Assembly: GCA_965602455.1 (NCBI GenBank)
Contig: CBFCYL010000006.1
Location: 1,385 to 65,384, forward strand
Direction of reading: 5' to 3'
DNA length: 64,000 bases
From: an uncultured Thalassospiraceae bacterium
Lineage (GTDB): Bacteria; Pseudomonadota; Alphaproteobacteria; Rhodospirillales; Magnetovibrionaceae
Below are positions 1,417-56,015 of the stretch, piece by piece (positions within the stretch are counted from its first letter, which is position 1; each line of letters opens with the position of its first letter). Below the pieces are notes generated by a model. The model saw only the letters and a list, made by a program, of their open reading frames with translations. It was not told the DNA's origin and did not search any database. The position numbers and the translations under genes are program-made.

Positions 1417-5210
<3,794 letters not shown>

Positions 5211-37104: not shown

Positions 37105-37796
37105 GCCGTTTTCCAGGCGATGTGCCGACTGATCCGTTTTTCAATCCTGTTGAAGATGCGGGTGATGACAAAGCTCATGGCCAAATAGATAGCGCCCGCC
37201 ACCATCAAAAACTCAGTCTGCATGTAGGTGCGCGCAATGACCGTTTGTGTCATGCCGGTCAGGTCCAGAAGCGTGATGGTGCTGGCCAGTGCTGAGCCCT
37301 TGAGCATCAATATGATTTCGTTGCCATAGGCGGGAAAGGCGATGCGGATGGCTTGGGGAAGCACCACCAGACGAAAGACCTTTACCGGGTGCAGGCCCAT
37401 ACTTTGCGCCGCTTCTATCTGGCCCTTGGGCACCGCCTGTATGGCACCACGCAGGATTTCCGCCGTGTAGGCCCCGGTGTTCAGGCCGAAGGCGATGATG
37501 GCACACCAATAGGCCTCGCGCAGAACCGGCCATAGAAAGCTTTCGCGCACGGCCTCGAACTGGCTGAAGCCATAATAAATCAGGAAAATCTGAACCAGCA
37601 GGGGCGTGCCGCGAAAAAAGAAGATGTAGCCATAGGCCGGCCACTTGAGTGCCGTGTGTTTGGATAACCGCATCAGTGCTACCGGAATTGCAAGCGCGGC
37701 ACCGACCAATAGCGCCAAGACCACCAGCTCGATCGTGGTTGCGGCACCATCAAGCAAGCGCGGCAGGTATTTCCAGATGGTTGCGAAGTCGATCAT
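37101..37796 (-). CDS. ABC transporter permease, polar amino acid (His/Arg/Lys/octopine) family
   Basis: EAA-loop region (A.S.G...F..V.LPQA) and 5 TM helices. 4-nt overlap with the upstream permease gene. Confidence 0.85.
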   Translation of the reverse strand: MIDFATIWKYLPRLLDGAATTIELVVLALLVGAALAIPVALMRLSKHTALKWPAYGYIFFFRGTPLLVQIFLIYYGFSQFEAVRESFLWPVLREAYWCAIIAFGLNTGAYTAEILRGAIQAVPKGQIEAAQSMGLHPVKVFRLVVLPQAIRIAFPAYGNEIILMLKGSALASTITLLDLTGMTQTVIARTYMQTEFLMVAGAIYLAMSFVITRIFNRIEKRISRHIAWKTA

Positions 37797-38488
37797 GAGG
37801 TCGTTTCCTCAGTACCGCGTCGCGACCGCTTCTCGGCCTTGCCCAGAACGATCATGGAAATAATGGTCAGCAACAGGTAGATCAGCGCCGCCGTGAAATA
37901 GAATGTAAAAGGCTCTTTGGTGAAGCCGACGGCAAACTTGGTGGCCCGCATCAGTTCATTGAGGCCAATGATGGAAATCAGGGACGTATCTTTCAGCAGC
38001 ACCAAAAACAGGTTGCCCAGCCCCGGCAGGGCAATGCGCCAGACCTGCGGTAACGTAACAAAACGAAAAACGTACCAGCGGTGCATGCCCAACGCCCGTG
38101 CCGCTTCGCCCTGGCCATCGGGTATGGCCTGAATGGCGCCGCGAAACACTTCCGTGGCATAGGCCCCGAACGTCAGGCCCAGCGCAATAACGCCAGCAAA
38201 ATATGGACTAAGTTCTACAAACTGCTCATCGCCGAACCACCCGGCAATGGCGCTAAGCGCACTGGAAGAACCAAAATAGACGATCAACACCACCAGCAGT
38301 TCCGGCAGGCCCCGCACAACCGTGGTGTAAAAGCCCGCCACCGAACGCGCCACGGCAGATGATGACAGTTTGGCAATGGCGCCCAACAAGCCCAGCAACA
38401 GGCCCAGCGCCAGCGCACCAAAGGCGACGCGCAGCGTCATCAGGGCGCCCCACATCAGCTGGTCGCCATATCCGTGAAGGTCAATCAT
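37793..38488 (-). CDS. ABC transporter permease, polar amino acid family
   Basis: Paralogous permease with GEAARALGM..F..V.LPQ. Confidence 0.85.
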   Translation of the reverse strand: MIDLHGYGDQLMWGALMTLRVAFGALALGLLLGLLGAIAKLSSSAVARSVAGFYTTVVRGLPELLVVLIVYFGSSSALSAIAGWFGDEQFVELSPYFAGVIALGLTFGAYATEVFRGAIQAIPDGQGEAARALGMHRWYVFRFVTLPQVWRIALPGLGNLFLVLLKDTSLISIIGLNELMRATKFAVGFTKEPFTFYFTAALIYLLLTIISMIVLGKAEKRSRRGTEETTS

Positions 38489-45778: not shown

Positions 45779-46366
45779 ATGGCAACACCAACCAAATCAT
45801 TGTTACGCCAGGAGGTGCTTCCATTCGTGATGCAGTTTGTTCTGATGATTCTGGCGATACTGGCCGGCGATGAAATTCTGCACCTGTTTGACCTGGTGTG
45901 GCTGGGCCGATTGCTAGGCATTCCGGGCACATTGTTGATTATTTTTTCCCTGCTTTACTCATTGCGCAAGCGCAAGATGATAACCATCGGAAACCCCAAG
46001 GCACTGCTGGGTTTGCATGAAACCTTGACCTGGGCCGGATCGTTTCTGGTTTTGCTGCATGCTGGCCTGCATTTCAATACCGTGTTGCCGTGGCTGGCAA
46101 CCATGTTTCTTGTAATCAATGTGCTCAGCGGCATGATCGGGCAACGCTTGCTCCATCGTTCGCGTATGCATCTCAAGGAAAAGGAGGAACACCATCGCTC
46201 CAGCGGACTAAGCAAGCAGGAAATTGAAAAAAAGATGTTTTGGGATTCAGTCACCTTTGACCTTATGGCCAAATGGCGAGTGGTTCACTTTCCCATATCG
46301 TTTATTTTCGCGATGCTAACGTTCGGTCACATGATAAGCATCTTTTTGTTCTGGGAATGGAAATGA
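45779..46366 (+). CDS. His-rich 5-TM membrane protein (possible b-haem / ferric-reductase-like or DUF4405-like electron carrier)
   Basis: Five hydrophobic helices with intramembrane His (LHLF, LHETLTWAGSFLVLLHAGLH, VHFP..FGHM). The start abuts the upstream stop, and its own stop overlaps the next start (ATGA). Confidence 0.55.
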   Translation: MATPTKSLLRQEVLPFVMQFVLMILAILAGDEILHLFDLVWLGRLLGIPGTLLIIFSLLYSLRKRKMITIGNPKALLGLHETLTWAGSFLVLLHAGLHFNTVLPWLATMFLVINVLSGMIGQRLLHRSRMHLKEKEEHHRSSGLSKQEIEKKMFWDSVTFDLMAKWRVVHFPISFIFAMLTFGHMISIFLFWEWK

Positions 46367-47232
46367 GCAGGTTCATCAAAATATTACTGTTGCTTAACCT
46401 CGCCGTTATTCTGGTGCTGGCTGTTGTATACCCCAGCCTGATGATCAGCCCGGGCCCGGTTATCAAGGGCCATGAGGAATTTTCAACCGACTGCTTCGCC
46501 TGTCACACGCCGCTGCTTGGCGCCCGTTCGGAAAAATGCATTTCATGTCATAAGGTTACTGACATTGGCTTGTTAACAACCAAGGGCAAGCCGGTAGTTA
46601 AAAACAAACCGGCGACTGCTTTTCACCAAAAACTATTGGGTCAGGACTGTGTTGCCTGCCACAGCGACCATGAAGGCGTGATTGTTTTTCGTGAGGTGCA
46701 GAAATTCTCCCACGCGCTTGTTGATGAAAAAACCCTGAAACAGTGTGTTGCTTGTCATAAAATACCAACCGATATGCTGCATAAGTCGGCGCCAGAAGAT
46801 TGCAAAATGTGTCACACCACGGAGAAGTGGAAACCGGCAACCTTCAAGCATGACTTCCTGCCCAAGGAACGGCTTGCTAACTGCAAGTCGTGTCATCTGG
46901 AAAAAACACCCAAGGACAGGGTGCACGATAACGCCTCCAAAGACTGCAAGGTTTGTCACACCACGGACAAGTGGAAACCGGCAACCTTCAAGCACGAATT
47001 GCTGCCCAAGGCCGAGCTCCGGGTTTGTGAGAATTGCCATATCAAGAAAGCGCCCGATGACCGCCTGCACCGCGAATCAACCAAGCGATGCAAGAATTGC
47101 CACACCACTGATAAATGGAAACCGGCCAAGAATATATTCGGCAAATCGCGCTCGCAAAATCCGGTTTCGTCTTCTTCGCCCTTTGACGCCGTCAGCCCCG
47201 GGTGGTGGCTCGACAGGAGCGGTAATGACTGA
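46363..47232 (+). CDS. Nine-haem c-type cytochrome (c3/c7-like multihaem), N-terminally anchored/secreted
   Basis: Hydrophobic N-terminus and nine CxxCH motifs (CFACH, CISCH, CVACH x2, CKMCH, CKSCH, CKVCH, CENCH, CKNCH). Three CHTT[DE]KWKP occurrences, the first two extending to CHTT[DE]KWKPATFKH. Confidence 0.85.
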   Translation: MSRFIKILLLLNLAVILVLAVVYPSLMISPGPVIKGHEEFSTDCFACHTPLLGARSEKCISCHKVTDIGLLTTKGKPVVKNKPATAFHQKLLGQDCVACHSDHEGVIVFREVQKFSHALVDEKTLKQCVACHKIPTDMLHKSAPEDCKMCHTTEKWKPATFKHDFLPKERLANCKSCHLEKTPKDRVHDNASKDCKVCHTTDKWKPATFKHELLPKAELRVCENCHIKKAPDDRLHRESTKRCKNCHTTDKWKPAKNIFGKSRSQNPVSSSSPFDAVSPGWWLDRSGND

Positions 47233-47434: not shown

Positions 47435-49111
47435 ATGGTTGAAATCTTGTCTTTATTGGCAGCCGCTGTAGCAGCCGTGCTTCTGTTTAACCGTTTGGGC
47501 CTTGGTTCGGTGTTGGGCTATCTGGCAGCCGGTGCGGTGGTTGGGCCCGCCGGATTTGCGTTGGTCCAAGACCCTGACAACATGCGCCACATCGGCGAAC
47601 TTGGTGTTGTTTTTTTGCTGTTCCTGATTGGTATTGAAATCAAGCCCAAACGCCTATGGGTTATGCGCCGAATGGTGTTTGGGTTTGGTGGCGCGCAGGT
47701 CCTGATAACGGGTCTGGTGTTGGCTGGCATTACCTACTTCGCCGTTGGCACTAATTATGCCCAATCATTTATTATCGGGTTTGGCCTGGCTCTATCATCC
47801 ACCGCCTTCGGCCTTCAAATTCTCAGCGATGAAAACCAGCTGTCCTCTCGTTGGGGCCGGTCCAGCTTCGCCATCTTGCTGTTCCAGGACCTTGCGGTGG
47901 TTCCATTGATGGTGATTGTGCCAATACTGGCCGCCGACAGTATGAATCTGAGTGAATCCATGGGCCTTGCCGTTCTCGAGGCGGGGTCTATCTTCCTGGC
48001 CGTGCTGGTCGTTGGTCGTTATGCGGTCAACCCGGTGTTGCACGCCATCGCCCGCAGCAGAAATTCGGATGCCTTTGTGGCTGCCGCATTGCTTTTGGTG
48101 CTCGGCTTTGCCTGGGCAATGGAACAAATCGGCCTGTCCATGGCCATGGGAGCCTTCATTGCGGGCGTGATGCTGGCGGAATCACAATATCGCCATCAGG
48201 TCGAGGCCGACGTATTGCCGTTTCGCGGTTTGTTGCTCGGCCTGTTCTTCATGAGCGTCGGCATGACCCTGGATCCGATGGTGCTGGCCGCCAATTGGCA
48301 GGTAATCATTGGTGGCACGGTGGGAATGTTGTTGATAAAGACCGCGCTGATCATTGGCATTGCGCGCATGGCCAAGCTATCGCTTGCGGATTCCTTGCGC
48401 TCCGGGTTTTTGCTGTCGCAGGCTGGCGAGTTTGGCTTTGTGCTGTTTTCTCTGGCTGGTAATCATGGCGTTCTACAAGAGGATTTGATCGCCCCGCTGC
48501 TATCAATAATTGTGCTTTCCATGGCGGTAACGCCGGTGATGGTGCGCATCGGCAGCGCCATTGCAGAACGTAGCGGCGATGGAGAGCCCGACATAGTGGT
48601 GGGCGAGGAGGTGGAGGAGATCCGCCCGGTCCTGATTGCCGGCTTTGGCCGGGTCGGAAAAACGATAGCAAGCCTGCTGAGGGCAGCCAACATTCCATAC
48701 ATTGCCATTGATGCGATTGCAGACAATGTGACGCACGGCAGAAGCGCCGGTCATCAGGTTTTTTTTGGGGATGCCAGTCGACCTGATGTTCTGCGTGCGG
48801 TTGGCGCCAGGCATGCCAGACTGGTGGTGGTGACGCTGGACAATCCAGTCGTGGCAGAGCGACTGATCCACACGATGAACCGCCTGTGCCCCGATGTGCC
48901 CGTACACGCACGGGCACATGACTGGGATGTTGCCGACCGCTTTGAGGCTCTGGGTATTGCTCACTCCATCCCCGATACCGTTGAATCAAGTTTGCGTTTG
49001 GGTGCGGCCACGCTTGAGGCAGCCGGTGTCAGCGTAGAGGATCGCCGTGCTCTGTTCGATGAACTGAGTGCCGAAAACTATGCCAAGCTGCGGGTCCATG
49101 AGACCCAATAG
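47435..49111 (+). CDS. kefB: CPA2 K+/H+ antiporter with C-terminal RCK/TrkA-N domain (KefB/KefC-like)
   Basis: About 12 TM helices (LGYLAAGAVVGP, LLFLIGIEI) and a C-terminal Rossmann VLIAGFGRVGKTIA. I prefer the ATG at 47435 over the TTG at 47429. Confidence 0.85.
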   Translation: MVEILSLLAAAVAAVLLFNRLGLGSVLGYLAAGAVVGPAGFALVQDPDNMRHIGELGVVFLLFLIGIEIKPKRLWVMRRMVFGFGGAQVLITGLVLAGITYFAVGTNYAQSFIIGFGLALSSTAFGLQILSDENQLSSRWGRSSFAILLFQDLAVVPLMVIVPILAADSMNLSESMGLAVLEAGSIFLAVLVVGRYAVNPVLHAIARSRNSDAFVAAALLLVLGFAWAMEQIGLSMAMGAFIAGVMLAESQYRHQVEADVLPFRGLLLGLFFMSVGMTLDPMVLAANWQVIIGGTVGMLLIKTALIIGIARMAKLSLADSLRSGFLLSQAGEFGFVLFSLAGNHGVLQEDLIAPLLSIIVLSMAVTPVMVRIGSAIAERSGDGEPDIVVGEEVEEIRPVLIAGFGRVGKTIASLLRAANIPYIAIDAIADNVTHGRSAGHQVFFGDASRPDVLRAVGARHARLVVVTLDNPVVAERLIHTMNRLCPDVPVHARAHDWDVADRFEALGIAHSIPDTVESSLRLGAATLEAAGVSVEDRRALFDELSAENYAKLRVHETQ

Positions 49112-49198
49112 CCCCCCCCGTTTCTTAAGTGAAGCCGGGGCTTTTGCTTACTTTGATCCCGGTGAAAAATGATAATCTTAATAGACTAGGAATTGTGC

Positions 49199-49223
49199 GG
49201 AACTTTTATCACGCTCAGGCGTC
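49199..49223 (+). promoter_or_regulatory. ECF-type promoter P1 (GGAAC-N16-CGTC)
   Basis: GGAACTTTTATCACGCTCAGGCGTC, 55 nt upstream of the 49278 ATG. Same geometry as P2 and P3. Confidence 0.65.
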
Positions 49224-49277
49224 ATCCCAACTGAACGGCAAGTTACATATGCCACAAAGTTAGCTGGGAGACTGAAA

Positions 49278-49694
49278 ATGAAAATGTTCCATCAATTTAG
49301 CTGGGGGTATTGGTTTGCAACCGCCGTTCTATTGACGGCTGGCCTTACGTATTGGCCCACCGCAATTTCATTGGTTATTGTATTAAATATAGTACAGCTC
49401 GTGCACGTCTTAGCGGCAGCAAAACAATTTACCGCATTTCCGGTTCAGGTTCGGGCTTTTTACCTTGGGCTGTTGCTTTTGGGCACAATCCCGGGACTGC
49501 AGTTTATTCATTGGGTCCAATTCATCGGCACATGGGCAATGGTAATATTTAATTATTGCCCGCTGGCACGGTTCCTTTCCCTTATGCCGTGGAACCGCAA
49601 GGTGCCATTTAGCACGTCACTTGTTATGGCAACAATTTTTACCCCACCGGTTAAGGGAAGCATACTTAAGAAGAGGCCTTCCCACGCTTCGTGA
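49278..49694 (+). CDS. Small 4-TM membrane protein, unknown function (C-terminal part faintly YgaP-TM/DUF2892-like: ..NYCPLARFL..)
   Basis: GGGAG RBS, four hydrophobic segments, own terminator. Confidence 0.5.
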   Translation: MKMFHQFSWGYWFATAVLLTAGLTYWPTAISLVIVLNIVQLVHVLAAAKQFTAFPVQVRAFYLGLLLLGTIPGLQFIHWVQFIGTWAMVIFNYCPLARFLSLMPWNRKVPFSTSLVMATIFTPPVKGSILKKRPSHAS

Positions 49695-49737
49695 TTTTTA
49701 TCCAAATATATATTTCAATCAATTTTGCATCATATCC

Positions 49738-49777
49738 GCTGCCGAAGATCATTAACATGGTCTTCGGCAGTTTTTTT
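49738..49777 (+). terminator. Rho-independent terminator
   Basis: GCTGCCGAAGA-loop-TCTTCGGCAG followed by TTTTTTT. Confidence 0.8.
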
Positions 49778-49796
49778 ATTTTTTTCAATTTTTGTG

Positions 49797-49821
49797 GGAA
49801 CTTTTTTCCCGCACGTGCGTC
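49797..49821 (+). promoter_or_regulatory. ECF-type promoter P2 (GGAAC-N16-CGTC)
   Basis: GGAACTTTTTTCCCGCACGTGCGTC, 62 nt upstream of the DsrE-like gene. Confidence 0.65.
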
Positions 49822-49882
49822 ATCACTACCATAGGGGCCGTATTGGCCGAACCGTAATATTAAATAAATTTAGGAGATTGTT

Positions 49883-50239
49883 ATGTCTGATAAAATTCTT
49901 GTTAATTGTGCCGCCACGTCTGATGAAGTTGAACAGGCAACCGTAACCTTTATCGTTGCCAACGCATCACTTGCTGATGATAACGAAACTGCAATTTTTC
50001 TGACCAACGATTCCGTAAGCCTTGTCACCAAGGGTGGAGCCGATGGTGCCCAGGCAAATGGCCACGAGCCTATCAGCAGCTATATTACGCAGTTTGTTGA
50101 AAACGGCGGCAAGTTGTGGGTTTGTCCGGCATGCGCCAACCCGCGCGGCATTAAGCCCGAAGACCTGATCGAAGGTGCTGAATTGCTGGGTGCTCTTCCA
50201 ATGATCCAGTACGCCAAAACCGCAACCAGCATCTTTTAA
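49883..50239 (+). CDS. DsrE/DsrF-like sulfur-relay family protein
   Basis: 118 aa with the family-typical layout and a WVCPACANPRGI Cys motif. TAGGAG RBS. Confidence 0.65.
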   Translation: MSDKILVNCAATSDEVEQATVTFIVANASLADDNETAIFLTNDSVSLVTKGGADGAQANGHEPISSYITQFVENGGKLWVCPACANPRGIKPEDLIEGAELLGALPMIQYAKTATSIF

Positions 50240-50273
50240 TCAACCTGCCTAAGTTTGAATCCGGAGAAGTAAA

Positions 50274-51068
50274 ATGAACATTCTAACAGAAAGTAAGTCA
50301 CGTGAACTTGACCGCGTTTCACTCGAAATTCAGGTTAAGGATATGTACCAAAAGGTTGCTACAAATCCGCACGGTGAATTTCATTTTGAAATGGGCCGTG
50401 CACTGACGGAAAGGCTCGGTTACCCTGTTCAGGATCTTGATGTAATTCCTGCGGAAGCTATCGAATCTTTTGCCGGTGTTGGGTATTACTTTGATCTGGC
50501 AGAATTACAACATGGTGAAACCGTTGTTGATCTTGGCAGCGGCTCCGGAACGGATGCCTTTGTTGCTGCATTAAAGGTTGGTAGCAAAGGAAAAGTTATC
50601 GGTTTTGATATGACCGATGAACAACTGGCAAAAGCCAACAGACTTCGCGATATTGATGGCTTTTCCAATGTTGAATTTCGCAAGGGCTACATTGAAAAAA
50701 TTTCATGTGAAGACGGCAGTGTTGATGCGGTTATCAGTAACGGCGTTATCAACCTGTCAGCTGATAAAGCCGCTGTATTTAACGAAATCGTGCGCGCGCT
50801 AAAGCCTGGTGGACGCATGGTCATTGCCGATATTGTTACCGAGCACCATCTACCAGAAGGCATCACCTGCGATGCCGACTTGTGGGCAGCGTGCATTGGC
50901 GGTGCCATGCAGGTGGTGGATTACCAAGCGGCAATCGAAGCCGCAGGCCTTGAGGTGGTTTATATTCGCGATAATTATAAATATCATTTCATATCCGACG
51001 GTGCTAATTCTGCGACCGAAAAGTGGGGGGTGAAGAGCATTTCGCTTTTGGCCGCTAAACCCGCCTGA
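50274..51068 (+). CDS. ArsM-like class I SAM methyltransferase, paralogue 1 (substrate unknown)
   Basis: VKDMYQKVA.., ESFAGVGY, VVDLGSGSGTDAF motif I, VISNGVINLSADK, LKPGGRMVIADIV. Collinear with arsenite methyltransferases but lacks two of their Cys residues. Confidence 0.7.
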   Translation: MNILTESKSRELDRVSLEIQVKDMYQKVATNPHGEFHFEMGRALTERLGYPVQDLDVIPAEAIESFAGVGYYFDLAELQHGETVVDLGSGSGTDAFVAALKVGSKGKVIGFDMTDEQLAKANRLRDIDGFSNVEFRKGYIEKISCEDGSVDAVISNGVINLSADKAAVFNEIVRALKPGGRMVIADIVTEHHLPEGITCDADLWAACIGGAMQVVDYQAAIEAAGLEVVYIRDNYKYHFISDGANSATEKWGVKSISLLAAKPA

Positions 51069-51091
51069 TAACCAGCAATATTAACAAAAAA

Positions 51092-51124
51092 ACCGCCGGG
51101 GCCGATAAAACCTCGGCGGTTTTC
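51092..51124 (+). terminator. Rho-independent terminator
   Basis: ACCGCCGGGG-loop-CCTCGGCGGT followed by TTTC. Confidence 0.7.
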
Positions 51125-51170
51125 TAATTATATCAAGTAGTTATGGCACGAAAAAATTTATCTAAAACAG

Positions 51171-51195
51171 GGAACTTTTTCCGCCAGTTTGCGTC
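51171..51195 (+). promoter_or_regulatory. ECF-type promoter P3 (GGAAC-N16-CGTC), likely autoregulatory
   Basis: GGAACTTTTTCCGCCAGTTTGCGTC immediately upstream of the sigma factor gene. Confidence 0.7.
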
Positions 51196-51255
51196 TAACT
51201 TGGTATGGGGAACGTATATTCAGCGCTGAGCATTGATATCGCGGGGGCAGGGTGC

Positions 51256-51864
51256 ATGACGGCCGGGCAATCAGATCATGATTTTTTCAAGAGCCAGATA
51301 GCTCTCCATATGGACAGCCTTTATGGTTGCGCCATGCGCCTGACCCGTAACCCGGATGACGCGCAGGACCTTTTGGCTGAAACGGTAACCAAGGCGTGGG
51401 CGGCAATTGCAAATTTGCAAGACCGAGAGAAGTTTCGGGGCTGGATATTTTGTATTCTCAACAACACGTTTATCAGCCTTTACCGCAAACAAAAAAATGC
51501 TCCTGAAACAGAACAATACCTTGAAGAGAGTGAAGACGACGAACCATTTTCACTGTTTGAAAAACTGCACCAACCATTTTTATTGTGGTGGGGAAACCCC
51601 GAACAGGAATATATGAACAAGCTGCTGGCCGATGACATAAAGTCGGCTATTGACGGACTAAGCGATGAGTTTCGCGATGTAGTGGTTATGGTTGATGTTC
51701 AGGGTTTAAGTTACGAAGAAGCCGCAGCTTGCAGCAATGTACCCGTGGGAACAATACGATCCCGCTTAAAGCGCGCCAGAACGCAATTACAAAAATCCCT
51801 ATGGAAGCAGGCTTCCGATTCCGGCATAGAAACGGCCGAATCCTTCATAGGAGAAAGCAAATGA
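51256..51864 (+). CDS. ECF (group 4) RNA polymerase sigma factor
   Basis: Region 2 (DAQDLLAETVTKAW..FRGWIFCILNNTFISLYRK) and region 4 (LS.EFRDVVVMVDVQGLSYEEAA..VPVGTIRSRLKRAR). An alternative ATG at 51205 would be almost leaderless relative to P3. Confidence 0.85.
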   Translation: MTAGQSDHDFFKSQIALHMDSLYGCAMRLTRNPDDAQDLLAETVTKAWAAIANLQDREKFRGWIFCILNNTFISLYRKQKNAPETEQYLEESEDDEPFSLFEKLHQPFLLWWGNPEQEYMNKLLADDIKSAIDGLSDEFRDVVVMVDVQGLSYEEAAACSNVPVGTIRSRLKRARTQLQKSLWKQASDSGIETAESFIGESK

Positions 51865-52115
51865 CACACGATGATAAAAAAAATGAGAATGCTCTTGACT
51901 GCAAGGATGTGGTAAAGAAAATTTTTGAATATCTTGATGGTGAGCTGGATGAACACACCCATGCTGATATAGAGCACCATATGGATCATTGTCGTAGCTG
52001 TTTTTCCAGGGCGGAATTTGAATCCGAACTTAAAAAGAAGGTTAAGGAAAATGCGGATGAAGAGGCACCAGAAGATCTGAAAAATCGTATTAATAATCTT
52101 ATTGGAAATTTTTAA
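51861..52115 (+). CDS. Cytoplasmic ZAS-type anti-sigma factor, RsrA-like
   Basis: 84 aa with no TM segment. HxxxCxxC (HHMDHCRSC) plus an upstream Cys (LDCKD). Collinear with Streptomyces RsrA as I remember it. ATGA overlap with the sigma gene. Confidence 0.75.
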   Translation: MTHDDKKNENALDCKDVVKKIFEYLDGELDEHTHADIEHHMDHCRSCFSRAEFESELKKKVKENADEEAPEDLKNRINNLIGNF

Positions 52116-52144
52116 TATCTGGGGTTGGTATTGGAGGGGAAAAT

Positions 52145-52927
52145 ATGGTTGCCATTCTTGGTGATGACCGTGCCTTTATTGTCAAGGCAGTAAAAGAGAT
52201 GTACTCGGACGTTGCAAAAAACCCGGGAAAGGAATTTCACTTTCCAACCGGTAGGTCGGCTTGTGAGTTTGTTGGTTATCCTGATTCGGAACTTAATCAA
52301 TTACCTGAAACCGCCATTGAATCTTTTGCCGGCGTTGGTTATCCGCATAAATCAAACTTTATAGGCGAAGGCCATGTGGTGCTGGATATTGGTTCCGGTT
52401 CGGGCACCGATGCCCTTATTGCGGGCTTGCGTACCGGGCCTGCGGGAAAAGTCTATGGTCTTGATATGACAAAGGCGATGAGCGATAAGCTGCGGGAGAA
52501 TATAAATAAAATGGACGTATCCCATGTTGAACCGCTTGAGGGTCACGCCGATGAAATTCCATTGGCCGATGAAACCGTTGATGTGGTTACCAGCAACGGG
52601 GTGTTGAACCTGGTGCTTGATAAACAAAAAGCATTTAACGAAATATTCCGGGTTCTAAAACCCGGCGGCAAAGTGCAAATCGCCGATATTGTTGTCGGCA
52701 GTCCTATTTCGGATAAATGCAAAGAAGACCCGGCCTTGTGGGCTGAGTGCGTGGTTGGGGCAGCACTGGAAGACCAGTATATAGAAATGTTCCGCAACGC
52801 TGGGTTTGCCGACGTTAAGGCCTTACACCGGTTTGATTATTTTGAGGGAAGCTCCAGTGCAAACACCCGCAAGGTTGCCGGTGAATTTCAGGCCCATACG
52901 GTTGAGTTGGTTATGACCAAGGCCTGA
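52145..52927 (+). CDS. ArsM-like class I SAM methyltransferase, paralogue 2
   Basis: VKEMYSDVA.., ESFAGVGY, VLDIGSGSGTDAL, VTSNGVLNLVLDK, LKPGGKVQIADIV. GGAGGGG RBS 30 nt after the anti-sigma stop. Confidence 0.7.
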   Translation: MVAILGDDRAFIVKAVKEMYSDVAKNPGKEFHFPTGRSACEFVGYPDSELNQLPETAIESFAGVGYPHKSNFIGEGHVVLDIGSGSGTDALIAGLRTGPAGKVYGLDMTKAMSDKLRENINKMDVSHVEPLEGHADEIPLADETVDVVTSNGVLNLVLDKQKAFNEIFRVLKPGGKVQIADIVVGSPISDKCKEDPALWAECVVGAALEDQYIEMFRNAGFADVKALHRFDYFEGSSSANTRKVAGEFQAHTVELVMTKA

Positions 52928-52986
52928 CATATGAGCAATTCTTTGTACTCTCGCCACCTCAATAAAAACTCATAAACTGGCGGGCG

Positions 52987-53002
52987 CTGCCTCCAGCTAC
53001 CA
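52987..53002 (+). repeat. Distal att-like copy of the tRNA-Met 3' end (CTGCCTCCAGCTACCA)
   Basis: 16/16 identity with 41642-41657. Confidence 0.9.
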
Positions 53003-53020
53003 AACGAAAGGTCCCGTCAG

Positions 53021-54253
53021 TTAACCTGTGGGGCTTTTTTGTGCGCCCCGCTCGGGGCTGGCGCGCACAATGGCAAACGAAACAAACAATGCCAGCAGCC
53101 ACCACGTTGACCAGATGGAAAAATTAAACAACGAGCTTCCCCAGAAGCCAGCCATGATAAGCATTAGGACAAGGGCGTCGGTGCTGCCGGTTCTGAGGAA
53201 GCGCCCCAGTTCACCGAAAAACAAATAGGCCAGCACAACGACCATCAGCCCGAGGCCCATCGCTCCGGTTTCGGCCAACACTTCCAACACCCAGTTGTGC
53301 GGGTGTGAGGGCACCAGCTCTGCCGTGATGCCTTTTGCAAAATCCCCGGCGCCGGGCAGGAAATTAACCGCGTTGATGCCGTGGCCGAACCAAGGCGCTT
53401 CCTTTGCTTTTTCGATAACAAAAAGCCAGATCTGCTGGCGGTGGCTATCGACCAGCCACGATGGCAGATAATCGTTGGGGTTTTCGCTGCGCCAGCCCTG
53501 AGAGTCCAGCAGGTAAACAAGGGTGCCGCCGATAGCAGCGGCAATGAAAATGCCGCCCACCGGCATCCATTTCCGGTTGGTCAGTGAAAGAGCGACAACG
53601 AATAGCACCGCCATTATGCCGACACCAAACAGGGCTGAGCGGCTTCCTGATTCAAAAATAACCACAACACTCATTACCGCAACGGCCAAGCCGGCCCATC
53701 GCCACCGGTTGGCCAGCTTTATCCCTGACCACAACGCCAGCGGTATCAGGCAAACGGCTGCCGAGGCAAAAGCCTTGAATATAACATCCGGGCGAATTCT
53801 GTTGCCGTCTGCCAGCTTTCCCTTCATCAACAAGGCCAGTTCGGGAACGGCATAAAGGCTGATCAGCGCCAGCGCCATTGCTATGATACCGCCGATTAAA
53901 AGCGCCCTCTGGCAAACGCTCAGGCGGCGGTCGCTGGCGGCCAGAAAAGCCCACAGCAAGCCCGCGCCAAGCATAAGCAACGGCGTGCGCGCCCAGGTGG
54001 AAAAGGAATGCCACGGCTCCGGCGAAACAAACAAGCCCGGTATCCACACGATGGTCATCAGGGCGACCAGCATGAAAAACGGCGAGGTAAAATTAGGCTT
54101 TAGCTTCCGCCACAACGCGCCGCGGTCAATCAGCAGGGCACCCAGAAACGCCAGTGCCAACGTGCCTTGCAGTGCAGAGCGGCCAAAGGCCATCAGCGGA
54201 ATGGAAAGGCCGACCAGCACGCTGATCCATATTTCAGGGGAAGGGCGGGTCAT
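53021..54253 (-). CDS. O-antigen ligase family (Wzy_C/WaaL-like) membrane protein
   Basis: About 11 TM helices with a large loop containing ..HPHN..LEVLAETG.. typical of O-antigen ligase/polymerase domains. Confidence 0.7.
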   Translation of the reverse strand: MTRPSPEIWISVLVGLSIPLMAFGRSALQGTLALAFLGALLIDRGALWRKLKPNFTSPFFMLVALMTIVWIPGLFVSPEPWHSFSTWARTPLLMLGAGLLWAFLAASDRRLSVCQRALLIGGIIAMALALISLYAVPELALLMKGKLADGNRIRPDVIFKAFASAAVCLIPLALWSGIKLANRWRWAGLAVAVMSVVVIFESGSRSALFGVGIMAVLFVVALSLTNRKWMPVGGIFIAAAIGGTLVYLLDSQGWRSENPNDYLPSWLVDSHRQQIWLFVIEKAKEAPWFGHGINAVNFLPGAGDFAKGITAELVPSHPHNWVLEVLAETGAMGLGLMVVVLAYLFFGELGRFLRTGSTDALVLMLIMAGFWGSSLFNFSIWSTWWLLALFVSFAIVRASPERGAQKSPTG

Positions 54254-54795
54254 GCGCCGTCTTTTTGTCGGGCGTAGTCGCCATAGGTTCCATCGCGCTC
54301 TGAAATGACGGCGGGTTCCATTGGCCAGTCAATGCCAAAGGCCGGGTCGTTCCAGCGCACACCGCGCGCCAGTTCGGGTTCATAAAACTCACCCATCAGG
54401 TAGAGAATTTCGGTATCCGGTTGCAGGGTGATGAAACCGTGCGCGCACCCTGCCGGCACAAGCATGGAAAGCCTGTTTTCCGCCGTCAGTTCGGTGCCCA
54501 CCCATCGGCAGTAAGTGGGGCTTTCAGGGCGCAGGTCGACCGCGACATCAAAAAGCGCACCTTCGGTGCACCGCACCAGTTTTTGTTCCGGTTTGGGCGC
54601 GTCCTGGTAATGCATGCCGCGCAGGGTGCCCGCATCGCGGTTCAGTGAAAAGTTGGTTTGGCGGATGCGCATATCCACGCCACTGGCCGCCAGTTCCTTT
54701 TCGCAAAAGCTGCGGGCGAAAAAGCCGCGCTCATCACCAATAAGTTCCGGCTCGATCACCACCACATCGGCAATTTCAGTTTTGCGGATAATCAT
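54250..54795 (-). CDS. rfbC: dTDP-4-dehydrorhamnose 3,5-epimerase
   Basis: Cupin fold, DERGFF, RGMHYQ..P..Q.KLVRC..G...DV.VD.R. Overlapping stop/start codons on both sides. Confidence 0.88.
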   Translation of the reverse strand: MIIRKTEIADVVVIEPELIGDERGFFARSFCEKELAASGVDMRIRQTNFSLNRDAGTLRGMHYQDAPKPEQKLVRCTEGALFDVAVDLRPESPTYCRWVGTELTAENRLSMLVPAGCAHGFITLQPDTEILYLMGEFYEPELARGVRWNDPAFGIDWPMEPAVISERDGTYGDYARQKDGA

Positions 54796-56015
54796 GCGGT
54801 TACCTCAAGTTCGGGAATTGCGACCACAAACTTCCCCCCCCAATCGCGGATAAAGCCCATTTTCCCCATGATCTCTTGCTTTAGGTTCCAGGGCAAGATC
54901 AAGACGAAATCGGGCTGCGTTTCGCCGATGTGCTCAGGCGCCAGAATAGCAAGGCGGCTACCGGGCAGGAAGCGACCCTGTTTGTGGGGGTTGGCATCTA
55001 CCACACAGGCAATCAGGTCATCACCAACGCCGCAATAATTCAACAGCGTATTGCCCTTGGCCGCTGCGCCATAGGCGACAACCGTTTTGCTATCGGCCTT
55101 GGCACTTTCAAGAAACTCAAGCAGGCTTTTGCGCACAGCCTCGACCCTCGGGGTGAACCCGTCGTAGGCCGCCAGCGTATCCAGTTTTGCCGCGCGTTCC
55201 TTATTGCGAACCACACCAAGACCCTCACCTTCGTTGTGGGCGGCGCAAGCGTCGTGGCAGGCATAAACGCGCAATGAGCCGCCATGGGTGGGAATTTCAT
55301 CAACGTCAAAAACCCTTAACCCATGGGCCTGAAAAATACGTTCCACCGTCAGCAACGAAAGATAGGAATAGTGTTCGTGGTAAATGGTATCAAACTGGCC
55401 CAGCTCAATCAGGTTCAAAACGTGCGGGAATTCCACCGTCAACACGCCGTCTGGCTTTAACAACACCGAGAACCCCTGAACGAAATCATTAAGGTCAGGC
55501 ACATGGGCCAGCACGTTGTTGGCAGCGAGAAGGTCGGCGCCATGGCCTTCGGTCTTCAGGCGCGTCGCGGTCGCTTCGCCAAAGAAGGCAACTTCCGTTG
55601 CCACGCCTTTTTCGCGCGCCACCGTGGCAATATTCGCCGCCGGTTCCACACCCAGCACAGGCACGTCGCGGGCGGCAAAATGTTGTAACAGGTAGCCGTC
55701 ATTGCTGGCCACTTCGACCACCCTGGACTGGGCATCAAGGCCAAACCGCTGGCACATGGCTTCGGCATAGTCGCGCGCGTGCTCAACCCAGCTTTCGGCA
55801 TATGAGGAAAAGTAGGCGTAGTCGGAAAAAATAGCTTCCGCAGGCACGGCGTCTTCAACCTGCACCAGGAAACACGAACCACAGACCCGGGCATGCAGGG
55901 GGTAGGTGTTTTCCGTCGCCCTGGCACCATCAAGGAAGCTGTTGGCCAGCGGCTGGTTGCCGAGGTCAACCAGCGTTTGTTCGAGCGGGGATTGGCAAAA
56001 CCGGCATTGGGTCAT
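54792..56015 (-). CDS. Sugar C-methyltransferase-like SAM enzyme (N-terminal Zn-ribbon, class I MTase, C-terminal C-methyltransferase domain)
   Basis: CRFCQSPL..LVDLGNQPLANSFL.. N-terminus and VVEVASNDGYLL motif I. About 407 aa, as in TylCIII/NovU-type enzymes. Confidence 0.7.
   Translation of the reverse strand: MTQCRFCQSPLEQTLVDLGNQPLANSFLDGARATENTYPLHARVCGSCFLVQVEDAVPAEAIFSDYAYFSSYAESWVEHARDYAEAMCQRFGLDAQSRVVEVASNDGYLLQHFAARDVPVLGVEPAANIATVAREKGVATEVAFFGEATATRLKTEGHGADLLAANNVLAHVPDLNDFVQGFSVLLKPDGVLTVEFPHVLNLIELGQFDTIYHEHYSYLSLLTVERIFQAHGLRVFDVDEIPTHGGSLRVYACHDACAAHNEGEGLGVVRNKERAAKLDTLAAYDGFTPRVEAVRKSLLEFLESAKADSKTVVAYGAAAKGNTLLNYCGVGDDLIACVVDANPHKQGRFLPGSRLAILAPEHIGETQPDFVLILPWNLKQEIMGKMGFIRDWGGKFVVAIPELEVTA

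Follow-up and report, generated by a model that had tools for sequence, protein, structure and literature searches.

Here, we describe a small regulatory module found in a 64-kb stretch of DNA from an uncultured Thalassospiraceae bacterium (64,000 nucleotides (nt); hereafter the window), in which an extracytoplasmic function (ECF) sigma factor, a soluble zinc-associated anti-sigma (ZAS) factor of the RsrA type, a membrane protein (TM4), a DsrE/YchN-like protein and two methyltransferases (MT1 and MT2) are encoded on a 3.9-kb island behind three predicted promoters of the same geometry (P1 to P3). We judge it rather likely that this island, which appears to be foreign, carries a self-contained, positively autoregulated regulon of the SigH/RsrA type, whose methyltransferases would probably act on a sulfur or selenium nucleophile. 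The case is built on features read from the sequence and from comparison with its relatives, namely a promoter motif that is conserved, the families to which the genes belong, the zinc/cysteine site of the anti-sigma factor, the loss of ArsM cysteines from the methyltransferases and the division of the latter into two orthogroups. A first-pass annotation had proposed, as its central reading, an ECF sigma factor with an RsrA-like partner and same-geometry promoters that define a local regulon including the sigma factor's own operon, and this is strengthened here by the recurrence of the motif across 81 related loci. Its gene calls, being a membrane protein, a DsrE-like protein, two methyltransferases, an ECF sigma factor, an 84-amino acid (aa) zf-HC2 protein and a CPA2 Kef-type transporter, were likewise borne out, while its description of the regulon as 'compact' and 'self-contained' holds for the 64 kb only. 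The switch is of a known kind, and the new features are its conserved methyltransferase output and its CGTC promoter specificity; our literature searches did not find a module of sigma factor, RsrA-type anti-sigma factor, DsrE protein and methyltransferases described.

A SigH/RsrA-type sigma and anti-sigma pair

The pairing of an ECF sigma factor with an RsrA-type partner is the textbook thiol-stress switch of actinobacteria. The sigma factor of the island matches PF04542 and PF08281/PF04545 and scores 90.3 bits against TIGR02937 (cutoff 42.9), which places it among the ECF (group 4) members of the sigma-70 family. Its closest solved structure is Mycobacterium tuberculosis SigH (E 7.7e-30) and its best-scoring NCBIfam model is the actinobacterial SigH/SigR equivalog TIGR02947, although at 136 bits it stays well below the equivalog cutoff of 251.55. 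It also carries an invariant, family-specific linker, FSLFE.LHQPFLLWW.NPEQ, that is absent from SigH, and it may already be a numbered, uncharacterised ECF group. The core of this linker (51568-51609; residues 122-135 of the 219-aa open reading frame (ORF)) is identical in 30/30 aligned homologues and was specific enough to pull the sigma family out of 596 Gb of genomes.

The sigma gene probably starts at the ATG at 51256 and not at 51205, since homologues begin to align near residue 18-23 of the 219-aa ORF and its 90%-identity protein cluster has two members of 202 aa. Only 9 nt past the CGTC of P3, about where transcription would be expected to start (window positions 51197-51258), there is the in-frame ATG at 51205, the use of which would yield a leaderless sigma isoform, 17 residues longer, that recalls the long and unstable form of SigR. 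In a 90%-identical cluster from another genome (L001), the 27-30 nt that directly follow the P3 -10 element are 100% identical and better kept than their surroundings.

The anti-sigma factor scores 70.4 bits against the NCBI RsrA equivalog TIGR03988, above its cutoff of 62.5, and also matches PF13490; its only PDB match is RsrA (5frf), aligned over residues 10-77, and its sequence contains no hydrophobic segment. It combines an HxxxCxxC motif with an N-terminal cysteine, and all four residues (C14, H40, C44 and C47), which correspond to the zinc ligands and redox-active cysteines of RsrA, are invariant in 82/82 relatives. It had been annotated as a soluble ZAS protein collinear with RsrA, in agreement with the passing of the RsrA cutoff and the invariance of these residues.

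The locus is also arranged as in SigH/SigR systems, with the soluble ZAS gene directly downstream of the sigma gene and overlapping its stop codon, and with a GGAA-N-GT promoter, P3, upstream of the operon, which implies autoregulation of the predicted kind. Compared with SigR-RsrA of Streptomyces and SigH-RshA of Mycobacterium and Corynebacterium (original ECF group 12), the likeness thus extends from a common two-domain ECF sigma factor, with SigH as closest solved kin, to a small soluble zinc anti-sigma factor with an N-terminal cysteine and HxxxCxxC, encoded directly downstream and overlapping sigma, and to an autoregulatory promoter with a GGAA-type -35 element, a GT-containing -10 element and equal spacing. 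The differences are that the sigma factor is far from the SigH cutoff and carries the HQPFLLWW linker, that the -10 element is CGTC and not GTT/CGTT, that the hosts belong to Gram-negative phyla without mycothiol, and that the conserved output is a methyltransferase in place of thioredoxin-system genes.

Three predicted promoters of one geometry

A scan of the whole 64 kb for GGAACTTTT-N12-CGTC finds exactly three sites, P1, P2 and P3 (Table 1), against a chance expectation of 0.12; a count of three was reached in 0/100 dinucleotide-preserving shuffles, and tolerating one mismatch adds no site anywhere in the 64 kb. All three have a G ahead of CGTC, and an unguided repeat search independently groups them as one family (D2). 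The earlier claim of three sites of the same geometry, GGAAC-N16-CGTC with a preceding G, is therefore upheld by the exact scan and the shuffles. The looser form GGAAC-N16-CGTC has one further site in the window, at 38279-38303 on the reverse strand, which is probably a chance match because it lies within the ORF at 37793-38488 and has neither a T-tract nor a G ahead of CGTC; GGAAC followed by CGTC at spacings of N15, N17 or N18 has none.

With the sigma start set at 51256, P1, P2 and P3 lie 54, 61 and 60 nt ahead of their start codons. P1 and P2 had each been said to follow a strong terminator and to precede a transcription unit, and hairpins, for which z-scores and folding energies were computed (Table 1), were indeed found upstream of all three sites. 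The similarity between P1 and P2 extends past the -10 element, over 49199-49231 (GCGTCATCCCAAC) and 49797-49829 (GCGTCATCACTAC), as a repeat family (D3; 79% over 33 nt) from which P3 is excluded. A comparison of the 5' leaders with Rfam, in which regulatory RNAs were looked for, gave no match near a gathering score.

The relatives of the module were collected by a protein search, which returned more than 1,100 sigma homologues, and by a scan of one genome per GTDB species, in which 337 sigma relatives were recognised by the invariant linker. We fetched 80 loci, which span Alpha-, Beta- and Gammaproteobacteria, Nitrospirota, Gemmatimonadota and Binatia, and called their ORFs homology-first, the high-GC loci included. 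The closest relative is a Rhodospirillaceae metagenome-assembled genome, and the hosts include Marinobacter, Halomonadaceae, Nitrospira, sulfur oxidisers and many uncultured lineages.

Across 820 kb of related loci, the raw counts are 74 for GGAAC-N16-CGTC and 102 for GGAAC-N17-CGTC, with only 2-26 for spacers of 12-15 and 18-21. When counting is confined to sites that a same-strand family gene follows within 250 nt, 32 N16 and 70 N17 sites remain in 81 related loci, giving 102 sites, where any other spacer from 11 to 22 gives 0-4. A lack of conservation upstream of orthologous genes had been named in advance as grounds for refuting the module, and the motif has passed that test. Its elements are also tightly defined, the -35 being GGAAC in 102/106 upstream sites and the last base of the -10 being C in 102/103 and never T. 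An antisense match, GGAACAG.T..AGATA.TC.TCGTC, recurs inside MT2 genes (for example L045:7489-7513 and L071:7548-7572) and swells the raw N16 counts; this is a conserved coding motif and not a promoter.

The motif stands directly upstream of the sigma gene in 46/82 loci and, in most of the others, upstream of a DsrE-methyltransferase-sigma or methyltransferase-sigma operon; the 90%-identical L001 has it ahead of its sigma operon as well. It also precedes DsrE orthologues in 16-17 related loci, orthologues of TM4 (L011 739-764, with the gene at 765; L087 4941-4965, with the gene at 5001), and genes for methyltransferases, putatively secreted cupins and globins. The gene order sigma-ZAS-MT2 is near-universal in the related loci, and the two methyltransferases keep to their places: 63/64 of those that follow sigma/ZAS are of the MT2 type and 13/13 of those that follow DsrE are of the MT1 type. 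By this comparison the core of the module is sigma, anti-sigma and MT2, with the DsrE/YchN-like CxxC protein pairing with MT1. Beyond the module, the neighbour clusters, few of which are annotated, are lineage-specific (synteny within Marinobacter, RHH_4 proteins) and reveal no extended pathway.

Methyltransferases without the arsenic site

MT1 and MT2 are class I S-adenosylmethionine (SAM) methyltransferases (PF13847, E 3.8e-34 and 5.5e-26) with a conserved DLGSGSG (GxGxG) motif, and they form two orthogroups that are 44% identical to one another. For both enzymes, arsenite methyltransferases (ArsM, E 1e-28) come out best in NCBIfam and in the PDB, with scores that remain below the 263-bit ArsM cutoff of NF008823 (Table 1). 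In ArsM, As(III) is bound by three cysteines. An alignment to CmArsM (4kw7) places valine at Cys72 (FYGCG becomes FAGVG) and glycine at Cys174 (SNCVCNL becomes SNGVINL), so that Cys224 (GECLGGA, here AACIGGA) is the sole one of the three to be retained. Both losses are a property of the family, GVG and SNG being at least 85% conserved in 127 members, and the equivalent of Cys224 (C207 in MT1, C202 in MT2) is present in 104/106 covering sequences. MT1 and MT2 thus share with ArsM (CmArsM, PDB 4FS8/4KW7) the fold, the SAM motifs and one cysteine, but their sequences are not those of canonical ArsM, and arsenite is an unlikely substrate because two of the cysteines through which ArsM binds As(III) are lost. 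The first-pass label 'ArsM-like methyltransferases' was right as to fold, and misleading in so far as both proteins miss the ArsM cutoff and lack the Cys72 and Cys174 equivalents family-wide.

MT2 is longer in 36-39 relatives, at about 400-420 aa, and carries there an added C-terminal, MerC-like four-helix membrane domain with one invariant cysteine (ACYGT), for which PF03203 (MerC) gives 31-37 bits against a cutoff of 27.6 in 3/4 fused proteins tested. The MerC-like domain is a separate ORF in L055, where it follows a short MT2, and in L042. Such fusion is a further difference from ArsM.

Assignment of MT1 and MT2 to MddH or MddM was considered and set aside on the published descriptions, which are of UbiE/UbiG-family enzymes unrelated to ArsM. 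The relation to MddA and MddH (PMC11445057) is one of analogy to the proposed role, these enzymes detoxifying H2S and methanethiol by SAM-dependent methylation. They belong to other families than MT1 and MT2, MddA being a membrane enzyme of the ICMT-like kind and MddH, as described in PMC11445057, a member of the UbiE family.

Table 1. Positions of the predicted features of the island, with examples from related loci (L numbers); positions without a locus prefix are those of the window.
Feature	Position	Strand	Evidence or remarks
Hairpin 3' of the kef-type gene, just 5' of P1; left island edge	49106..49146	+	-16.9 kcal/mol, z -2.8
P1, ECF-type promoter (predicted)	49199..49223	+	GGAACTTTTATCACGCTCAGGCGTC
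TM4, 138-aa membrane protein of an orphan family; invariant Cys94 in YCPLARFLSLMPWN	49278..49694	+	AlphaFold2 model, homologue clusters
Strong intrinsic terminator, 15-bp stem then T-run	49738..49787 (hairpin 49738-49771)	+	-24.3 kcal/mol, z -7.6
P2, ECF-type promoter (predicted)	49797..49821	+	GGAACTTTTTTCCCGCACGTGCGTC
DsrE/YchN-like protein, 118 aa; CPAC motif, C81/C84	49883..50239	+	PF02635 53.8 bits (cutoff 22.7)
MT1, DsrE-associated SAM methyltransferase, ArsM fold; C207 conserved	50274..51068	+	NF008823 228.3 bits
Terminator hairpin after MT1 (inverted repeat I1)	51089..51123	+	-21.5 kcal/mol, z -4.8
P3, ECF-type promoter (predicted), upstream of the sigma operon	51171..51195	+	GGAACTTTTTCCGCCAGTTTGCGTC
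ECF sigma factor	ORF 51205..51864 (219 aa); likely start ATG 51256 (202 aa)	+	Pfam, NCBIfam and PDB matches
Soluble zinc-binding anti-sigma factor, RsrA type, 84 aa; C14/H40/C44/C47	51861..52115	+	Start overlaps sigma stop by 4 nt
MT2, core methyltransferase, short form without MerC-like domain; C202 invariant	52145..52927	+	NF008823 204.3 bits
Weak hairpin and T-run after MT2; right island edge	53004..53042	+	-20.5 kcal/mol, z -1.5, not significant
MT2-MerC-like fusions, examples	L045:6865-8109, L005:6898-8118, L033:6863-8131, L023:6849-8072		About 35 other loci
Cupin, examples	L023:5305-5925, L005:5292-5822, L027:8211-8732	-, -, +

Partners of the methyltransferases

The DsrE-like protein belongs to the DsrE/DsrF family (Table 1), and both cysteines of its motif, WVCPACANPRG, are invariant in 29/29 relatives. 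The CxxC...RGI stretch aligns with CKTCTDGRGI of YchN. With DsrE, TusD and YchN it therefore shares the Pfam DsrE domain and a cysteine 7 residues ahead of RG, with a CxxC as in Escherichia coli YchN, but it differs from them in being one small subunit without DsrF, DsrH or TusBC partners, and in always being paired with MT1.

Other genes recur next to the module in relatives. The commonest accessory gene, present in 27 related loci, encodes a Cupin_7/Cupin_2-type protein of about 170 aa with an HxH...E metal motif and a hydrophobic N-terminus, which we read, without the use of a predictor, as a signal peptide of a secreted protein; the gene is often divergent from the sigma gene and has its own motif. 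A Cupin_7-type domain together with a ZAS anti-sigma factor recalls RpoE-ChrR of Rhodobacter sphaeroides (original ECF group 11); here, however, the cupin has a gene of its own beside the sigma gene, for the most part with the motif ahead of it, so that it looks like a target and not like a sensor domain of the anti-sigma factor, and the window has no such cupin. Truncated haemoglobins (Bac_globin), whose hydrophobic N-terminus is read as a putative signal or lipoprotein leader, occur in eight loci, some of them behind the motif (L020:2906-3583, L025:7248-7937 and L074:6854-7297), and 71-aa DUF1858 proteins in three (L017, L020 and L030).

An MddA gene lies directly behind GGAAC-N17-CGTC in one locus (L081:4035-4850, reverse strand; NF045656 347 bits against 270), and a homologue of its product (phmmer E 7e-78) is encoded between MT1 and sigma, within a motif-driven operon, in another (L010:4863-5846, forward strand). 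A third MddA gene is 4 kb from the module (L014:965-1720, reverse strand). The island has no MddA gene, the rest of the window not having been searched for one.

An island of foreign composition

The island (49150-53000) has a GC content of 0.459 against 0.575 in the rest of the window, with GC at third codon positions of 0.31-0.50 in its genes and 0.63-0.68 in the flanking genes; GC drops from about 0.57 to 0.45 at the left edge hairpin and is back at about 0.57 at the right edge. The module is not intrinsically AT-rich, since in 67 other loci its GC equals that of its flanks, with a median difference of +0.003, and the downstream neighbours of the 90%-identical L001 cluster are different ones. 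Composition and the different flanks of L001 together support a foreign origin, and the earlier suggestion of horizontal acquisition accordingly gains from the contrast between the island and the window and from the equality of module and flanks elsewhere. Neither flanking direct repeats nor a transfer RNA were found at the island borders.

Proposed mechanism

By analogy with SigR-RsrA and SigH-RshA, the 84-aa anti-sigma factor would at rest hold zinc through C14, H40, C44 and C47 and sequester the sigma factor. On the same analogy, a thiol-reactive signal, whether an oxidant, an electrophile or a reactive sulfur or selenium species, would modify its cysteines, with loss of zinc and release of sigma. 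RNA polymerase with the freed sigma factor would then initiate at the three GGAAC(T)TTTT-N-GCGTC promoters, so that P1 would yield TM4, an orphan four-helix membrane protein with an invariant cysteine, P2 the DsrE/YchN-like CxxC protein and MT1, and P3 the sigma factor, the anti-sigma factor and MT2. The last of these would provide positive feedback as well as a built-in shut-off, the loop being closed by newly made, reduced anti-sigma factor. The nucleophile methylated by MT1 and MT2 would be a soft one, not arsenite but most probably sulfide, persulfide or methanethiol and alternatively selenide, with the DsrE-like protein as a possible carrier and with less reactive, volatile methylated species as products. 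Of this scheme, we infer three elements: that thiol chemistry frees sigma, that P1 to P3 are served by this sigma factor, and which substrate the methyltransferases use.

The substrate is suggested by the DsrE/YchN-type partner, by MddA and truncated globins in relatives, by the single retained cysteine, by the sulfur-oxidising and marine hosts and by published precedents, methylation being a means of detoxifying sulfide, reactive sulfur species and selenium (PMC11445057, PMC13089183, PMC10844679). The first-pass annotation had proposed thiol-reactive, sulfur-, selenium- or tellurium-type stress as the stimulus, and we keep this as a conjecture; DsrE, MddA and the truncated globins in relatives favour sulfur or selenium chemistry, though they prove nothing. 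For a pair of enzymes such as MT1 and MT2 there is a precedent, by analogy only, in the mammalian methyltransferases TPMT and INMT, which belong to other families than MT1 and MT2 and serially detoxify a chalcogen by methylation (PMC10844679, PMC13089183). A bolder proposal, which we regard as possible but doubtful, is that MT1 and MT2 make up a third bacterial family, besides MddA and MddH, of enzymes that methylate sulfide, persulfide or methanethiol (or selenide), one that is derived from the ArsM fold by losing two of the cysteines that bind arsenic, works with a DsrE/YchN-type carrier and is induced through a dedicated zinc-thiolate sensor of reactive sulfur or selenium species.

Several points weigh against a sulfur- or selenium-methylating regulon under this sigma factor. 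A ZAS motif by itself is no guarantee of redox sensing, we know of no enzyme of the MT1/MT2 clade with a known substrate, and that this sigma factor reads the promoters is deduced from co-occurrence. The MerC-like fusion seen in most relatives could mean a thiophilic metal and not sulfur or selenium, the cupin has no obvious tie to methylation, and MddA is found near the module in only 3/82 loci, clearly under the motif in two. The view is of 64 kb, and further regulon members, for instance thioredoxin-type genes, may lie elsewhere in the genome. Finally, the host is an alphaproteobacterium, and the EcfG consensus of that class, GGAAC-N16-CGTT, is close to the motif (PMC7083833).

Alternative explanations

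The sigma factor could instead be a general regulator of thiol-oxidative stress, akin to SigR/SigH, with a large genome-wide regulon of thioredoxins, reductases and proteases in which the methyltransferases are merely local members. In favour of this are its nearest kin, SigH with RsrA, the SigH-type geometry of its promoters and the view of only 64 kb of the genome. We nevertheless hold it to be unlikely, as the linkage of sigma, ZAS and MT2 is near-universal across phyla and thereby marks the methyltransferase as core output, the other 60 kb of the window have no further site, the island appears to be horizontally mobile as a unit and the sigma factor reaches only 136 of the 251 bits of the SigH equivalog cutoff.

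Decidedly unlikely, in our view, is that under the same regulation the substrate is a thiophilic metal or tellurium at the membrane, with the methyltransferases modifying a ligand or a protein and with no volatile sulfur or selenium products. The MT2 of the window is without the MerC-like domain, and the company of DsrE, MddA and globins speaks for sulfur or selenium; moreover, the methyl group of SAM is electrophilic and so cannot methylate cations of the Hg(II) type, which rules out SAM methylation of such cations on chemical grounds. What speaks for the metal is the frequency of MT2 fused to a four-helix, MerC-like domain with its invariant cysteine, the separate MerC-like protein that follows the short MT2 in L055 and a weak similarity to the TehB family.

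The three promoters might also be read mainly by EcfG, the general-stress sigma factor of the host, which would make the island a member of the general stress response. The EcfG consensus is one base away (PMC7083833) and the host is alphaproteobacterial, so that the near-identity of promoters deserves weight. Against this, the motif accompanies the sigma gene into Nitrospirota, Gemmatimonadota and the Gamma- and Betaproteobacteria, which should lack EcfG, a sigma factor that one paper describes as exclusive to Alphaproteobacteria (PMC3892343). The position that separates the two consensus sequences is moreover the one at which C is nearly invariant and T never found, and the partner of the sigma factor is a ZAS protein in place of NepR and PhyR, neither of which has a gene in the island; we therefore consider this reading very improbable.

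Least probable of all is an arsenic-resistance module in which genuine ArsM enzymes methylate As(III) and arsenite induces by attack on the anti-sigma thiols, for although the best matches of both enzymes are arsenite methyltransferases and thiol-reactive arsenite would be a plausible trigger of a zinc-thiolate switch, both score below the ArsM cutoff, only the Cys224 equivalent is left once valine and glycine have replaced the others family-wide, and no ars-type family was seen among motif-driven genes or among the recurrent neighbour clusters, few of which are annotated.

Significance

This sigma family brings a switch of the actinobacterial type into Gram-negative phyla, where it is tied to another, tightly conserved output. 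The output enzymes are called 'arsenite methyltransferase' by annotation pipelines despite the lost arsenic site; were the account of a sulfur- or selenium-directed regulon true, it would correct a systematic mis-annotation that inflates arsM counts in metagenomes. It would likewise offer a small, portable set of sigma factor, anti-sigma factor and promoter with defined -35 and -10 elements for synthetic biology, and, in marine and nitrifying bacteria, a candidate for methylation of sulfide or selenide on induction, with a bearing on volatile sulfur and selenium fluxes. If MT1 and MT2 were indeed a third methyltransferase family, the module would amount to an inducible source of methanethiol, dimethylsulfide or dimethylselenide that has gone uncounted until now.

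The orphan membrane protein and the flanks of the island

TM4 has no match in Pfam (to E 10) or NCBIfam, and its homologues fall into 36 clusters, all unnamed and without Pfam domains, that conserve FPVQVR and the invariant cysteine in YCPLARFLSLMPWN. An AlphaFold2 model (pLDDT 85, pTM 0.77) has four long and two short helices, and its comparison with the PDB by Foldseek returned nothing with E below 6. The sole PDB profile match is to the transmembrane domain of YgaP, which at E 0.3 is weak and a lead only. The thought that TM4 might be a split-off MerC-like domain was rejected, hmmsearch giving no match and hhalign a probability of 0.4%; MT2 is of the short form in 4/4 loci that carry TM4 against 25/61 of those that lack it, a weak hint. 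In L088 (5001-6978), a TM4 homologue outside a sigma module adjoins a 495-aa fusion of a PALP (cysteine synthase-like) domain to a glutaredoxin, with a UbiE-type methyltransferase nearby, which adds a further thiol- or sulfide-related context for TM4.

The kef-type gene at the left edge of the island had been counted as part of the picture, as a neighbouring KefB. Its product misses the cutoffs for KefC (491 against 752) and for KefB (450 against 804) and reaches only that of the CPA2 subfamily model, and only 2/82 loci have a Kef homologue close to the module, so that the adjacency is, on this comparison, coincidental and the gene no part of the system. Upstream of it, at 45779-47232, are a 195-aa membrane protein without a Pfam match and a 319-aa multihaem cytochrome c (Cytochrome_C7/CIII, with several CxxCH motifs), the ORFs of which overlap by about 90 nt. 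Downstream of the island, on the reverse strand at 53021-56015, is a polysaccharide-type cluster comprising an O-antigen ligase-like protein (Wzy_C), a dTDP-4-dehydrorhamnose 3,5-epimerase and a sugar C-methyltransferase (Methyltransf_13/14), and it is between this cluster and the kef-type gene that the island is inserted.

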